Counted from the first letter of the stretch, positions 35,793 to 40,979 are shown. The stretch: 64,000 bases of DNA from Ignavibacteriota bacterium (GCA_963801355.1 CAWDEM010000008.1:1856001-1920000), one strand, 5' to 3'. Numbers and translations are program-made. The notes: generated from the sequence alone by a model not told the origin.

Positions 35793-38387
35793 TCACCCAT
35801 ATTTTGCCAAAAGAGCCTGAAACCTCGGATTGCTCCTAAGCGGATCATAGATCGGGTCGAGCCGGAGGATGGGCACGGTGATGTATTTGGGTGCCTGAAG
35901 CGACAAAAGAAATTCCAGTTTGTCAAGTGCAGCGTCAAGTTTGCCGACCATGATATAGACCTGGGCCAAGGCTATGACTGGCCATACACCATCAAGGGCA
36001 TCCGTTGAGAGCGGAAGGAGCTCCACCGTAAGCTGTGCCTCCCGAAGGGCCGCCTCCCTCTGTCCAAGACCAGCGCAGACAATCGCTCGAGCGCGGTGAA
36101 GTATCCAGTCATCGGGTCTTTTGGCAATTTGAGGTTCTAAGAACACCCGGGCAGAATCAAATGAGGCAAACGAGCGCACCGAATCCTTCATGAAGCGGTA
36201 GATGAGTCCTTTCATTGGGATCATTTCTTCAGCAAAGGTCGGGTATGAGGGTATATCTGCAGGTGAATGATCCAGCCGGTCCAATGCCGATTGATACTTT
36301 CGTTCGTAGATATCCAGCAGGGTCAGCATTTGCCAGGCTTGGTACTGTGTTGGGGCTCGCTCAAGCGTGCTCCGGCTCTTCTCTGTGTCACCGCGCCACA
36401 GAAGGTACGTGTGAGCCTTGTTCACGTACGCGTGACGCTGGTCAGGCAGAAGAGAAATGGAACGGTCGAAATACCCTTCAGCCTCGGGATATTTGCCGAG
36501 TAGCTTAAGCGTGCCACCAATTTCCCTCGCAAGGGCATCCGCTTGCGGCTCGAGTGCGAATGCCTTCTTGAGACCTTCTAGTGCTTGTTCAAATTTACCC
36601 TGCCGTCTCCAAATGTAGGCAACATCGGCAAGAACGCCGCTCGCATTCGGGAGTTTCCTTTTGGCAACGTCAAATGCCTGGAGTGCCCGCCCATAGTCCC
36701 GGTAGCCGTAGTAGTAGTAATATCCGAGCGCGTGGTATGCCTCCGGCAGGTCCGCTTGGAGTGCAAATGCACGGTCAAGACAGCGCTTGGCCATAGAGAG
36801 GCGTTCCTTTGTCCGGTCGTGACCTTGCCAGTAGTACAGTAGATGAGCGTGTGAGAGCGCCGCATAGGCCAAAGCGAAGGTAGTATCAAGCTCAACTGCA
36901 CGTTCGAACATTTCGATCGCCATCTTGATTTTGGGGCCTTCGATTCCGCCGAGGGACCGACCTCGGAGATATGCCTGATAAGCGTCAAGGTTCTTCGTTG
37001 GAACCGCTTCAATAGTGCGTTTCTCACCTTCGCCCAATACGATATTGAGAGAGGTTACTACTCGCATGGCGATATCGGTTTGGACGCTGAAGATATCATC
37101 GAGCGTCCGGTCGATGTTATCTGCCCAGAGATGGGTGTCGCCTTTGACCTGGATCAGCTGCGGGGTAATGCGGATCCTCTGGCTGCTCCCGGTCTTCACC
37201 CACCGGATGGTCCCTTCAAGGATATAGTCCACGCCGAGCTCTTGGGCAACCAGAGGAAGTGTCTTGGAGCTCTTCTTATACTGCATGGCACTCTGCCGTG
37301 AGATCACTCCAAGTGTGCTGATCGAACTCAGCCGTGAGGTAATCTCATCGGTGAGTCCATCAGCGAAGTACTCATCCTCGGCGGAGCCGAGATTCTCAAA
37401 GGGAAGGACCGCGATCATCTTCAGCCGAGAGGGTGATCCCTCTTGACGGGAGAGGAGAACATAAGCTACAAGAGCCAGAGCAACCAAGCCAGCGACAGTG
37501 CCGTACCAGAAGAGCCTTCTGTTTCTTCGGCGAGCTACGGTTGAACGCTGGGTTAGTGCACCAATCTGTGACGTAAATCTCGAACATGATCGAAGATCAA
37601 CCAGGACCTCATCCATGTGCTGGTACCGACCACGGGGATTTTTGGAAAGGCATTTCTGCACTACCCGATCCAGCTCCATCGGCACGCCTGTTCTAAGGGC
37701 CGTGATGGGCTCAGGCTCGGAGTTGAGGATGGAATACAACAGTGCATTCTCGTACTCCGCCTCGAAGGGTCGCTTTCCCGTGAGCATTTCATAGAGAACG
37801 ATGCCCAATGACCAAATATCAGTCCGGTGATCTGCCGGGTCTCCTCGCGCCTGCTCCGGGGACATATAAGCCGCGGTACCGAGCGTGGAGCCCGTCTTAG
37901 TCAGCATCGTTCTATTACTCAACTTGGCCAAACCGAAGTCCACAATCTTTACCACTCCCTCCGAAGTCACCATCACGTTGGCGGGCTTTATGTCCCTGTG
38001 GACGATCTCATGTTCGTGGGCTTTAGCGAGTCCCTGCGCGATCTGCATGGCTATCCCCACGGCCTCCTCGATCTTCAACGGCCCGCGCTCGATCTTCTTT
38101 TTGAGCGTCTCGCCTTCGTACAAATCCATGACGATGAACAACTGACCGTCGGGGGTTTCATCGATGTCATGAACATTGCAGATGTTGTTGTGTTGAAGCG
38201 AAGAGGCTGCCTGAGCTTCGTGTATGAACCGCTCTTTGGCTTCGGGATCAGTAGTAAGGGCCGGAGGGAGGAACTTGAGGGCGACGGTGCGTTTGAGGCG
38301 CGTGTCTTCGGCCTTGTAGACAACGCCCATGCCTCCGCCGCCAAGATGCTCAAGGATTCTGTAGCGGGAAACGAGTTTGCCGATCAT
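35793..38387 (-). CDS. Hanks-type Ser/Thr kinase with TM helix, TolB-N-like domain and TPR repeats
   Basis: GGGGMGVVY, HRDIKPAN, DFG, YMSPE; IAVLPFENL; TPR repeats. Confidence 0.95.
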   Translation of the reverse strand: MIGKLVSRYRILEHLGGGGMGVVYKAEDTRLKRTVALKFLPPALTTDPEAKERFIHEAQAASSLQHNNICNVHDIDETPDGQLFIVMDLYEGETLKKKIERGPLKIEEAVGIAMQIAQGLAKAHEHEIVHRDIKPANVMVTSEGVVKIVDFGLAKLSNRTMLTKTGSTLGTAAYMSPEQARGDPADHRTDIWSLGIVLYEMLTGKRPFEAEYENALLYSILNSEPEPITALRTGVPMELDRVVQKCLSKNPRGRYQHMDEVLVDLRSCSRFTSQIGALTQRSTVARRRNRRLFWYGTVAGLVALALVAYVLLSRQEGSPSRLKMIAVLPFENLGSAEDEYFADGLTDEITSRLSSISTLGVISRQSAMQYKKSSKTLPLVAQELGVDYILEGTIRWVKTGSSQRIRITPQLIQVKGDTHLWADNIDRTLDDIFSVQTDIAMRVVTSLNIVLGEGEKRTIEAVPTKNLDAYQAYLRGRSLGGIEGPKIKMAIEMFERAVELDTTFALAYAALSHAHLLYYWQGHDRTKERLSMAKRCLDRAFALQADLPEAYHALGYYYYYGYRDYGRALQAFDVAKRKLPNASGVLADVAYIWRRQGKFEQALEGLKKAFALEPQADALAREIGGTLKLLGKYPEAEGYFDRSISLLPDQRHAYVNKAHTYLLWRGDTEKSRSTLERAPTQYQAWQMLTLLDIYERKYQSALDRLDHSPADIPSYPTFAEEMIPMKGLIYRFMKDSVRSFASFDSARVFLEPQIAKRPDDWILHRARAIVCAGLGQREAALREAQLTVELLPLSTDALDGVWPVIALAQVYIMVGKLDAALDKLEFLLSLQAPKYITVPILRLDPIYDPLRSNPRFQALLAKYG

Positions 38388-38475
38388 GGGAAACCTACAC
38401 AGGCGTGTACTATCCCGACGGCACAAGGAACCAACGGTACGGCGGAATAATACGGAAGGGGCGCACGATAGTCAA
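38388..38475 (-). promoter_or_regulatory. Sigma70-type promoter plus conserved kinase 5' leader (copy C)
   Basis: TTGACT (38475-38470), 17 bp, TATTAT (38452-38447); leader contains tgccgtcgggat. Confidence 0.75.
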
Positions 38476-38837
38476 ACAGCCGATTTCTACTGGGGCGATT
38501 GTCGCACACTGGGATCCGGAAATACGAAGGGATACACTCATACACTCAAAAGCCGCGACACCTTTGCGGCATCGCGGCTCGTCATCCCTCACAGCTGAGG
38601 CATGAAACCTTGCTCAGGTTTACAATTTCAAATCACAGCGTGGTCACCCTCACCATTTTCTTGCAGTGAATTCTGCTTTCTTCGTGCGGGATCTTGGCTC
38701 GGGGCCTCTTGGTCGCGGGCCAAGCGTCATCCCACACCTAGCGAAAACAGGGCACATTTGACCGATTATTGTGCACCAGGCGCACTAGAAAATACAGCCC
38801 ATGTACAGTCGCAGATCCAAGACGCCAAATAACCGCG

Positions 38838-38991
38838 TTTTTCGTCGGGGCGGGGGGATTTGAACCCCCGGCCTTTTGGTCCCGAAGATTGCGGCAATCT
38901 CGGAATCGAGCGAAATGAGGGCAGTTTTGCAGATTTGAATTACATGGAGAGCATTGAATTACACAAATCGCCTACAATCTGTCTACAGTGA
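38838..38991 (-). repeat. ~153-bp direct repeat copy 2, containing the 3' half of tRNA-Pro(CGG)
   Basis: Minus strand TTCGGGACCAAAAGGCCGGGGGTTCAAATCCCCCCGCCCCGA; no tRNA 5' half. Confidence 0.9.
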
Positions 38992-39314
38992 ATTCCGATG
39001 GGAGACACTTGACGTTGCTGGTTAAGATGCGGCTGTCCACTTGGGACGGTCACTATCGGCCTTGTAGATGACACCAACCCTACGCCGGAAAGGTCTTCGA
39101 GGATCCTTCCTCCTCAGGAAATGTACCGCCCTTCGCTCAAAACAAACCAGCTCACTCGACCCTTCCCTATCAACGAGTCCTTCGCCCACTCTATTCTCAC
39201 TTTTCGAATCGGTCCCCTGATCATTTGGCTAATGATGGAACTCTGGCTTGGATGGAATTTTGACGAGGGACAGCCCTTCCCAAGGGTACAATTACGGTAC
39301 AATCGTGTTCCCAC

Positions 39315-39345
39315 AAAAAAATCCCCTTTAGAATCAAGGGGATTT
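39315..39345 (-). terminator. Intrinsic terminator after tRNA-Asn
   Basis: Stem aaatcccctt/aaggggattt with a U-run on the minus strand. Confidence 0.7.
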
Positions 39346-39347
39346 CG

Positions 39348-39731
39348 CTCCGCGAGCAGGACTCGAACCTGCAACCCTGCGGTTACGGCATGCTCCCATG
39401 CTTTCGCATCGGTCCGGACTATCTCATCATCCTATGACTCGTCCTGCGTCGCAGGGGGTTCTTAGGATGCCGGGCGCTCGTGGGGCTTATTGGTGAGAAT
39501 CCTCATCCCCTAGTCTCTGCACGTTCCCCGCTACACATCTTCTCTTTGCGAGGCTTCGCTCAGGGTTGCCATGTCCCACGACAGTGAGATGTAGGGTTCC
39601 CTGAATTCACCCGGTTTTACACTCCCGATTACTCGAGAGCGCTGCTTTTCCTGCATGAACCTGCATATTTCCAAAGATCACGGCTCACACAGAGCTCACA
39701 GCCGCATGCTCTACCATTGAGCTATCGCGGA
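39348..39731 (-). tRNA. tRNA-Asn(GUU), split by an intron (exon 1 39731-39698, exon 2 39385-39348)
   Basis: Joined exons give a 72-nt cloverleaf TCCGCGA TA GCTC AATGGTA GAGC A TGCGG CTGT^TAA CCGCA GGGTT GCAGG TTCGAGT CCTGC TCGCGGA G. Confidence 0.95.
39386..39697 (-). ncRNA. Group I self-splicing intron (312 nt, no ORF) at anticodon position 35/36
   Basis: Exon ends in U and intron ends in G; P AATTCAGGGAA, Q AACCCTGAGC, R GTGCAGAGACTA, S GAGATAGTCC; P3 CCGGGTG/CGCCCGG, P8 CATCCTA/TAGGATG, P9 ATGC-GAAA-GCAT. Confidence 0.93.
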
Positions 39732-39809
39732 AAACATTTCAATATACCCATCCCCGGAGAAAATGTCAACAACAACAACACGAATCGAAAACCGGCCGGG
39801 ACCCGGTCC

Positions 39810-40979
39810 TCAAAGTTTGACCTCGAGCAGTCTCTTCGAACTTGCCCGGAGTTCCGTGAGTCCTGCAAGCAACACGACAATCGCAAGTATGTATGGCACG
39901 ACATGATTAATCTCGAAGAGCATTCCGGCAATAACCGGAGAAACCGCCATGCTGGCCGACATGATGGACGTCAGAATACCGATCGTCTCCCCACGCCGCA
40001 ATGGCCCCGCACCTCCGGCTACCTGACTCGTGACAACCACACGCAAAACCGCCTGTCCCGTTCCCAGTCCAAGCAGCCCCACGTAGAAGAGCGGAAGTAT
40101 CTCAACGGCAATGCAGACAAGCGCAACGACCAGAATCATCAGCATGATCTCCTGCAATCTGGCCTCATCGAACCTCTTCAACCAGAAGCGCTCCAGAAGA
40201 AACACCTGATTGACGACAACAACTACACCCACCACCGAAAATGCCATCCCCGCTGCGAAGGAACTGAACCCGAAGACATCTTTCACAAAAAGCGCGAACA
40301 CGGACTGCCCGATCACGAATGCAACGGCGAATGTCGTCCAGGTCACGTAGAGCGGACGCAATGGTTTGTCACGCCAGGCACGGATTAACGGCGACAACGG
40401 ATGAAAGTCGATCGCCTTCTCTTTGGAACGGTTGCGATTCGATTCCGGCAAGAAAAGAATCGCGCTCACTGCATTCAACGATGCCAGGATGCCTGCCACC
40501 CAGAACGGGAATACGTGCGAGACTTTGCTGAGCACGCCGCCCAAGATTGGCCCGAGGAGAAATCCGATCCCGAAGATAGCGCTCAAAATACCAAGATTTC
40601 TGGTCCTCTCCTTTTCATCCCTGGCAATGTCGACCATGTATCCCTGCGCGCTCGTGAAGTTGCCGGCTGCCGCACCATCGATAATGCGTCCCAGGAAGAG
40701 CATCCAGACCGATCTCGCGCTAGCGAATACGAACCAGCCGATCGCTGTGCTGATGATGCTCATAATGATCACCGGACGCCGGCCGATGCGATCAGAAAGT
40801 GCTCCAAGGAGTGGTGCGCTGATGAATGAGAAAACAGAGAACGACGCGAAGAGCAGCGTGACGACAGTGGGAGAGACCCCGAATTCCGTTGCGTAGAATG
40901 GCAGGATCGGAATGACAATCCCGAATCCCACAACGTCGACCAGAACAGTGAAAAATACGATATATGTTTCGCGTCGCAT
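39810..40979 (-). CDS. MFS transporter, TetA/DHA1-like
   Basis: DVVGFGIVIPILP, GALSDRIGRRPV motif A, GFLLGPILGG motif C. Confidence 0.9.
   Translation of the reverse strand: MRRETYIVFFTVLVDVVGFGIVIPILPFYATEFGVSPTVVTLLFASFSVFSFISAPLLGALSDRIGRRPVIIMSIISTAIGWFVFASARSVWMLFLGRIIDGAAAGNFTSAQGYMVDIARDEKERTRNLGILSAIFGIGFLLGPILGGVLSKVSHVFPFWVAGILASLNAVSAILFLPESNRNRSKEKAIDFHPLSPLIRAWRDKPLRPLYVTWTTFAVAFVIGQSVFALFVKDVFGFSSFAAGMAFSVVGVVVVVNQVFLLERFWLKRFDEARLQEIMLMILVVALVCIAVEILPLFYVGLLGLGTGQAVLRVVVTSQVAGGAGPLRRGETIGILTSIMSASMAVSPVIAGMLFEINHVVPYILAIVVLLAGLTELRASSKRLLEVKL

Follow-up and report, generated by a model that had tools for sequence, protein, structure and literature searches.

A group I intron splits the anticodon of the only tRNA-Asn gene found in an Ignavibacteriota genome between positions 35 and 36

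Results and discussion

The only tRNA-Asn gene that we found in the genome of an Ignavibacteriota bacterium (GCA_963801355.1) is very probably split by a group I ribozyme that belongs to a mobile intron family; this copy has lost the body of its endonuclease ORF. The gene lies on the minus strand of the window, by which we mean the whole stretch of 64,000 nucleotides that was analyzed (CAWDEM010000008.1:1856001-1920000). The placement of a group I intron between positions 35 and 36 is supported by a covariance-model match, by the cloverleaf restored on its removal and by covariation among relatives. Tentatively, we also suggest that this may be the first recognized copy of a large undescribed mobile family, characterized by its site at 35/36 of tRNA-Asn, by P7.1 or P7.1/P7.2 elements, by at least two endonuclease families and by its presence in more than ten phylum-level lineages.

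The split tRNA-Asn gene

An earlier note on this DNA, made from the sequence alone, had claimed that removing positions 39386-39697 gives a tRNA-Asn cloverleaf. This holds to the exact coordinates: with the exons joined there, ARAGORN returned a 72-nt tRNA-Asn(gtt) with a regular cloverleaf, and with its intron option it reads the unspliced locus as tRNA-Asn (gtt) i(35,312). Excision leaves a standard tRNA whose anticodon stem is intact and whose anticodon loop has 7 nt. Because alternative splice points give no 7-nt anticodon loop, the intron must lie between U35 and U36. The 3' exon does not encode CCA. Table 1 lists all features of the locus.

The gene is also one that tRNA finders miss, as the note had expected. 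In default mode, the sole ARAGORN call in the whole window is a tRNA-Ala elsewhere, and the tRNA-Asn is passed over. The tRNAscan-SE 2.0 paper (PMC8450103), which describes fMet and Ile2 intron cases, likewise says that the program is not designed to find such genes.

The sigma-70-like promoter ends some 10 nt before the first base of the tRNA and agrees with the consensus at 11 of 12 positions; it is the one site found, against a shuffle mean of 0.4, and is a consensus match only.

Table 1. Features of the split tRNA-Asn locus, in positions of the window
Feature	Position	Strand	Description
Sigma-70-like promoter of the tRNA gene	39741..39769	(-)	-35 TTGACA, 17-nt spacer, -10 TATATT
Split tRNA-Asn(GUU) gene	39731..39348	(-)	interrupted between anticodon positions 35 and 36
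5' exon, tRNA-Asn(GUU)	39698..39731	(-)	34 nt; ends CUGU; acceptor 5' strand, D arm, anticodon stem 5' strand, loop C32 U33 G34 U35
Group I intron	39386..39697	(-)	312 nt; first base G, last base G (39386)
P1 extension	39651..39692	(-)	8-bp stem, 39692..39685 with 39658..39651, and the loop it closes
Internal guide sequence	39642..39645	(-)	GCAG; pairs with exon CUGU (39701..39698) to form P1, 4/4 pairs
P2	39620..39641	(-)	9 bp, GUAA (GNRA) tetraloop
P3 5' strand	39608..39614	(-)	7 bp with 39476..39470; read from alignment
P4-P5-P6 domain	39521..39604	(-)	
P4	39604..39599 with 39565..39560	(-)	
P5	39595..39594 with 39570..39569	(-)	extension 39589..39584 with 39579..39574
P6	39559..39557 with 39523..39521	(-)	extension 39553..39548 with 39531..39526
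P7 5' strand	39511..39517	(-)	one bulged A; partner 39421..39416; expected guanosine-binding helix
Extra P7-P3' hairpin (P7.1-like)	39482..39510	(-)	outer stem GGGG/CCCC, inner GG/CC
P3 3' strand	39470..39476	(-)	
P8	39429..39468	(-)	6 bp and an extra 6-bp tip hairpin
J8/7 and P7 3' strand	39416..39428	(-)	conserved GAUGAGAUAGUCC block, invariant in relatives
P9.0 and P9	39387..39415	(-)	P9.0 is 39415..39414 with 39388..39387, 2 bp
3' exon	39348..39385	(-)	38 nt; starts UAACC; U36, A37, A38, anticodon stem 3' strand, variable loop, T arm, acceptor 3' strand, discriminator G
Intrinsic-terminator-like hairpin and T run	39313..39340	(-)	8 nt downstream of the tRNA

Group I identity and structure

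The assignment of the insert to group I agrees with Rfam model RF00028, which matches 39645..39395 on the minus strand over model positions 1-253 of 253 with 86.3 bits (E 1.4e-20) against a gathering cut-off of 50 bits. This intron is the sole match above the cut-off in the genome. Every helix of the core from P3 to P9, including the P3/P7 pseudoknot, was located in the window, together with three elements that the note had named, the GUAA-capped P2, the extra hairpin between P7 and P3' and the terminal G. P3 and the basal pairs of P5 and P6 were placed by hand from the columns of an RNAalifold alignment, not by script.

The helices consist of standard pairs throughout except for a single mismatch in P9, where six of seven positions pair under a GAAA loop and the remaining one is G.G; relatives have G.U or a standard pair at this position. 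At the 5' splice site U35 stands in a U.G wobble in P1, and the omega G at the other end of the intron directly follows P9.0. P8 is about 20 nt longer than in minimal relatives of 250 nt. By eye, P10 amounts to one pair at best, between U36 and the base just 5' of the guide.

The longest sense ORF in the intron (47 aa) has no match in Pfam or NCBIfam, and a 114-aa antisense ORF has none in Pfam. A blastn search with the whole gene returned no match among 50,697 phage records and none among plasmids.

Covariation among relatives

We aligned 53 distinct ORF-less copies of at most 266 nt with short exon flanks. RNAalifold recovered the anticodon stem, P1, P2, P3, P4, P5, P6, P8, P9.0 and P9 from this alignment; to these helices P7 was added as a pseudoknot, and one pair involving the terminal G was dropped. 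Over the resulting 61 pairs and 3209 cells, 98.7% form standard pairs. When the 3' partners were shuffled, 80.7% were paired and the observed value was reached in 0 of 500 shuffles, a control that ignores kinship; when the partners were slid by one to three columns, a control that accounts for kinship, 27-40% were paired. The structure was, however, derived from the same 53 sequences, so that the second comparison tends to be favorable to it.

Compensatory changes on both sides occur at 40 of the 61 pairs. They affect six of the seven modeled pairs of P2, all five of P3, six of seven in P9 and both pairs of P9.0, where 26 and 21 sequences have changed on both sides. The 8-bp stem of the P1 extension covaries in two genomes of the window's family (G001 and G015). 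The splice-site U.G and all six P7 pairs are invariant in 53 of 53 sequences, and the column of the terminal G never varies either; P7 being without variation, covariation neither supports nor contradicts it. By eye, most aligned relatives have a GNRA-type loop on P2 and a GAAA-type loop on P9. As read from these substitution patterns, the intron structure is under selection.

The hairpin between P7 and P3'

The hairpin between P7 and P3' is a trait of the tRNA-Asn intron family. Of 84 distinct segments that could be parsed, 63 hold one hairpin, 18 hold two and 3 were shortened by the pattern, a tally that leaves out 27 loci (24 with a GCGTCC variant of P3' and 3 with an unmatched P7). In the window's type it is a single composite hairpin, about 30 nt long, and the outer stem of the single-hairpin type shows double changes across relatives, with seven further variants besides the window's. 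Two-hairpin copies, in which the first hairpin is closed by a GNRA-type loop, come from records labeled WOR-3, Stahlbacteria, Elusimicrobia, Clostridia and Actinomycetota and from unnamed records.

Helices P7.1/P7.2 between P7 and P3' mark subgroup IA, and the classical tRNA introns belong to subgroup IC3, which has no helix there. Measured against the IC3 definition, the window's intron departs in having this hairpin and conforms in its GNRA loops on P2 (GUAA) and P9 (GAAA).

Predicted splicing

We infer the following course of splicing in vivo from the structure. Transcription from the gene's own promoter to its own terminator would yield a precursor of about 400 nt, in which the intron would fold into a group I core running from P1 to P9.0. 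P1 would form between C32 U33 G34 U35 and the guide GCAG, placing U35 in the U.G wobble, and free guanosine bound at P7 would attack after U35. The terminal G (39386) would then replace the guanosine, and the 3'-OH of U35 would attack after 39386, so that U35-U36 ligation restores the GUU anticodon. Because there is no convincing P10, it is probably the anticodon stem, still paired around the intron, that keeps the exons together. RNase P and CCA addition would finish the tRNA.

We looked for this locus in sequencing runs and in assembled metatranscriptomes. None of the runs contained at least half of the words of 39250..39850, the best being a DNA run at 0.31. The metatranscriptome contig sets X15, X16, X17 and X20 were compared at 85% likeness, and a contig was taken to bridge a joint if it had at least 31 letters on each side. 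A joint of exactly 39385 to 39698 occurs in one contig of X16, where the shorter side has 27 letters, and in one of X17, where it has 18. We rejected both as evidence of splicing, since their sides fall short of 31 letters and a tRNA-Asn gene without an intron in some other organism would give the same picture. Two records (X16 record 10 and X20 record 23) run from the 3' exon into the intron and may represent precursor RNA or DNA carry-over. Other joints in the P1 loop among these contigs belong to relatives with shorter loops or with inserts of ORF length.

The alternative that survives best, although we consider it improbable, is that the intron is real and needs a host protein, such as an RNA chaperone or a co-opted RNA-binding protein, for folding or for exon alignment. 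Many organellar group I introns are known to need protein help, and several traits of the window's copy would fit such a need: it has no maturase-like ORF, it combines a P9 mismatch with no clear P10, and its long P1 loop and extended P8 could slow folding. One review (PMC3984707) includes a section on protein factors for group I introns. Yet the core is compact and fully paired, with GNRA loops on both P2 and P9, and many lineages retain copies that have no ORF and measure as little as 227 nt, which speaks against a need for an intron-encoded protein. Moreover, small bacterial tRNA group I introns are known to self-splice in vitro. We favor self-splicing as the predicted behavior of the tRNA-Asn intron.

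Dependence on the sole tRNA-Asn gene

The genome (G000) comprises 4.8 Mb in 8 contigs, is rated 100% complete with a contamination of 0.14, and carries the window in a 3.0-Mb contig. Across the whole of it ARAGORN finds 47 tRNAs, which cover 19 amino acids and SeC, and no second tRNA-Asn in the 8 contigs, which answers the earlier note's question of whether this gene is the only one. The 34-mer of the 5' exon occurs a single time in the genome at up to 3 mismatches, and in the window's family all 11 genomes that carry the intron likewise match the 5' exon at one place only. Because no other tRNA-Asn gene was found, the reading of Asn codons would depend on excision of the intron from the predicted precursor, barring a gene in an assembly gap, which is conceivable in an assembly of 8 contigs.

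Such a gap gene is what a second alternative requires, namely that the split gene is a dead pseudogene and that the tRNA-Asn in use is encoded in an assembly gap or on an unassembled replicon. The fragmentation into 8 contigs leaves room for this, and decay does happen, as one related locus (L044) appears without P3' and half of P8. We nevertheless consider it very improbable: the completeness and contamination ratings, the ARAGORN census and the exon matches described above all speak against another gene, the core helices and both exons of the window's copy are intact, and so are its predicted promoter and terminator. A functional split gene remains our reading.

Distribution of the intron

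Among the genome of the window and 60 relatives, 14 of 61 have a group I match above the cut-off, and all 14 of these matches share the tRNA-Asn 3' exon junction. In the window's family, the intron is present in 11 of the 37 genomes sampled (G000, G001, G002, G004, G015, G017, G018, G020, G024, G031 and G033). It is therefore not rare in this lineage, contrary to the note's view that an intron of this kind would be unusual in an FCB-like genome. The window's exons are identical to those of loci labeled Ignavibacteriae, Ignavibacteriota or Bacteroidota, with which the description as FCB-like agrees. At ten loci of the family (G008, G009, G013, G016, G022, G023, G026, G029, G032 and G036) identical exons are directly joined. 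The family thus has at least ten empty sites; G019 also matched the 5' exon and falls outside the loci counted here. In one further genome, G028, the contig ends 18 nt past CTGT, in sequence that is not exon.

We also scanned contigs of one genome per species with a degenerate pattern running from J8/7-P7 through the 3' exon. The junction was found in at least 118 species records with labels from more than 10 phyla; within the window's class, 15 of 401 sampled genomes (G000 included) match, mostly from the window's own order. Among the matches listed, the labels include at least 52 Acidobacteriota types (Pyrinomonadaceae, Blastocatellia and one Chloracidobacterium), at least 15 Ignavibacteria types and at least 13 other Bacteroidota types. 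The same matches also include at least 5 labeled WOR-3, at least 4 each of Elusimicrobia, of Patescibacteria types and of Clostridia or Heliobacteriaceae, at least 3 each of Stahlbacteria and Krumholzibacteriia, at least 2 each of Actinomycetota and Proteobacteria, at least 1 each of Latescibacteria, Binatia and an archaeal label, and at least 8 unnamed records. All pattern-matched records are metagenome-assembled genomes, and some of their labels are doubtful.

The complete split gene was recovered at 109 of the 118 listed pattern loci; at the other 9 the stretch or contig ended or the script pattern was unmatched. With 13 loci from the relatives, this gives 122 listed loci, which are not all independent since a few loci of the two sets are identical. 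In 122 of 122 the intron lies exactly between CTGT and TAACC, and their acceptor and anticodon stems differ by lineage in a compensatory manner. An assembly or binning artefact that joined a tRNA to a foreign intron is the least probable alternative of all: the relatives are metagenome-assembled and some labels are unreliable (for example, the archaeal label of L100), but the CTGT/intron and G/TAACC junctions recur across the listed loci in independent assemblies, several of which place them on megabase contigs or in records titled chromosomes, and the window's own contig is of that size.

For some records the taxon label conflicts with the exon or intron type (L100, L085, L033, L058, L036 and L123). 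The 3' exon of L100, labeled Promethearchaeota, is identical to that of Clostridia-labeled L056 and to that of L085, and Heliobacteriaceae labels sit on exons of Blastocatellia type. These conflicts are likely to be binning or labeling errors rather than transfers.

Four weaker group I matches in three of the relatives (L015, L016, L017 and L018 in G039, G040 and G043) lie in 23S rRNA genes. At least one of them adjoins an ORF, and they form a family separate from the tRNA-Asn introns.

Endonuclease ORFs and probable mobility

Intron length over the 122 listed loci ranges from 227 to 879 nt, with 86 copies at or below 361 nt and 30 at 539-578 nt. In 34 of the 122, the P1 loop contains an endonuclease ORF, of the HNH type in 31 copies and of the LAGLIDADG type in 3. 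The HNH proteins are about 106-134 aa long and share 52-76% identity with the first sequence; in them, the CxxC, HH, N and CxxCH residues vary little or not at all. Some pass the Pfam HNH cut-off of 21.4 bits and some fall below it at 17.1-21.1 bits. Against solved structures, an HNH profile gave weak matches, the nearest at E 6e-4 to the HNH portion of a group II intron maturase and another to McrA (E 0.034). The LAGLIDADG ORFs, all in Acidobacteriota-labeled loci, encode 157 aa (L088), 221 aa (L112) and 220 aa (L127), with match E-values of 1e-34 for two and 5e-5 for one. Two HNH ORFs and one LAGLIDADG ORF submitted to NCBIfam found no match there. As LAGLIDADG takes the place of HNH in three copies, a second endonuclease family has invaded the same intron lineage.

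The HNH ORFs begin inside the 8-bp stem of the P1 extension, their last 11 codons span the P1 3' strand and P2, and their stop codon falls in J2/3. It is this ORF that has left a trace in the window. The note had stated that the insert has no homing endonuclease ORF, which is correct for the window's copy; what it left out is where the P1 loop comes from: an HNH ORF, of which G001, another genome in this genus, has an intact copy and the window a remnant. The 52-nt loop aligns with the ORF region of G001 over its first approximately 35 nt and its last approximately 22 nt, a body of about 250 nt is deleted, the frame is broken, and the junction lies near 39663/39662. Within the same genus, G002 has an ORF deletion with other end points and G004 has a different variant without an ORF remnant.

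Intron-bearing and intronless alleles thus coexist in the window's family, and empty sites beside copies that bear the ORF or have lost it by deletion are to be expected if mobile introns pass through a homing cycle. Under this model, the family would spread by homing into intronless tRNA-Asn genes by means of the HNH or LAGLIDADG endonuclease encoded in the P1 loop, and the window's copy, having lost the ORF body by deletion, would persist as a ribozyme only.

Two loci show irregular structures. In G004, the end of the 5' exon is partly duplicated at L004:1769-1900 (-), just upstream of the intron-bearing tRNA-Asn and beside a short perfect hairpin, and the duplicate leads into the initial bases of another intron variant. 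Homing or recombination in the past may have left this scar. In G028 (L149), a hairpin of this kind likewise comes after CTGT where the contig ends. The copy at L044:1907-2168 (-), with a P1 loop close to the window's, lacks P3' together with half of each neighboring hairpin, the 3' half of the P7.1-like one and the 5' half of P8. The intron there is probably broken, being either a decayed, non-splicing intron or an assembly error.

Relation to known introns

Group I introns in the anticodon loops of bacterial tRNAs are already known, and the mechanism proposed here is an ordinary one. The review PMC3984707 cites such introns in tRNA-Leu, tRNA-fMet and tRNA-Ile and names the Azoarcus pre-tRNA-Ile as a solved group I structure. 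The accessible parts of that review and of PMC8450103, PMC5733544, PMC2686568, PMC3362086, PMC4644332, PMC11809585 and PMC8155191 do not describe a group I intron in a bacterial tRNA-Asn. The openly accessible papers found to contain both terms deal with organelle genomes and bring up each term on its own. In openly accessible full text, no group I intron in a bacterial tRNA-Asn came to light, and an earlier report may exist. The note mentioned, without verification, reports of Asn introns at 35/36 in Patescibacteria; the occurrence fits the Patescibacteria-type records above, and no such report was among the texts found. Relative to the accessible literature, the use of tRNA-Asn as host, insertion at 35/36, a P7.1-type element, an HNH ORF within P1 and so broad an occurrence appear to be new. 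If the 35/36 tRNA-Asn reading and the claim of an undescribed family are taken together, neither the host gene nor the site would be among those of described bacterial tRNA introns, a proposition that we regard as quite possible and short of probable.

The nearest analogs are other small tRNA introns. The tRNA-Leu(UAA) introns of cyanobacteria and plastids (Anabaena/Nostoc type) are likewise small group I ribozymes in an anticodon loop, with a 5' exon ending in U, a U.G pair in P1 and a flanking anticodon stem, and they too are mostly ORF-less and patchily distributed. They differ in host tRNA, in site and in the P7-P3' hairpin of the tRNA-Asn family: the tRNA-Leu(UAA) intron lies between positions 34 and 35, belongs to subgroup IC3 and has nothing between P7 and P3'. 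The IC3 introns in Azoarcus tRNA-Ile(CAU) and Agrobacterium tRNA-Arg(CCU) are also compact self-splicing tRNA introns, splicing being a prediction for the window's copy, and the GNRA loops on P2 and P9 of the latter match their tetraloop-receptor architecture. They occupy other host tRNAs and sites, being inserted after position 36, and are without a P7.1-like element. We know of no endonuclease ORFs in them, whereas the listed tRNA-Asn copies carry such ORFs in 34 of 122 cases.

Endonucleases are known from elsewhere among related systems. The Synechocystis tRNA-fMet intron, said to have been treated by Bonocora and Shub in 2001, reportedly comes with a homing endonuclease. Its endonuclease belongs to a family other than HNH or LAGLIDADG, unlike the 31 HNH and 3 LAGLIDADG ORFs of the listed tRNA-Asn copies, and the position of the tRNA-Asn HNH ORF, which starts in the P1 loop and extends across the P1 3' strand into P2, also contrasts with that system. 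Phage group IA introns (T4 td, Twort type) resemble the tRNA-Asn family in having extra helices between P7 and P3' (P7.1/P7.2 by definition) and endonuclease ORFs in peripheral loops, and the WOR-3-, Elusimicrobia- and Clostridia-labeled copies have exactly two hairpins there. In contrast, the phage introns sit in protein-coding genes of phages, and the window's type has one composite hairpin rather than two.

Implications

If these readings are correct, all asparagine decoding in this organism depends on a guanosine- and Mg-dependent ribozyme step, because the intron sits in the only tRNA-Asn gene, and that step could serve the cell as a control point. It would be a new case of host and site: an essential tRNA with a single gene copy, whose second and third anticodon bases are brought together by the splice. 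The lineages that carry the undescribed family would be mostly uncultured.

The consequence for annotation is more immediate. Because default tRNA finders skip the gene, genomes will be reported as having no tRNA-Asn, and this affects Acidobacteriota, Ignavibacteria, WOR-3, Elusimicrobia, Patescibacteria and others. A missed tRNA-Asn affects quality criteria based on tRNA counts as well as inferences about decoding.

The family would also offer a whole homing cycle within one bacterial family and genus, with empty, ORF-bearing, independently ORF-deleted and probably broken copies. As possible tools, it includes very small natural ribozymes (from 227 nt) and a family of HNH enzymes of about 106 aa that presumably recognize the DNA of the tRNA-Asn anticodon arm.

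Neighborhood of the gene

Upstream of the tRNA-Asn gene, the minus strand carries an MFS transporter gene and one of hisIE type; the downstream neighbor on that strand encodes a Ser/Thr kinase with TPR repeats. Between the tRNA terminator and the start of the kinase-TPR gene (38427-39322, about 900 nt) there is no ORF longer than 86 aa, and an Rfam search of 38300..39900 matched nothing in this gap. Two TTGTACC-like words lie a few bases apart just after the terminator, at 39270-39320 (-), and could be a promoter or an operator of the downstream sequence. A similar pair is found downstream of the tRNA at three related loci (L003, L004 and L008).
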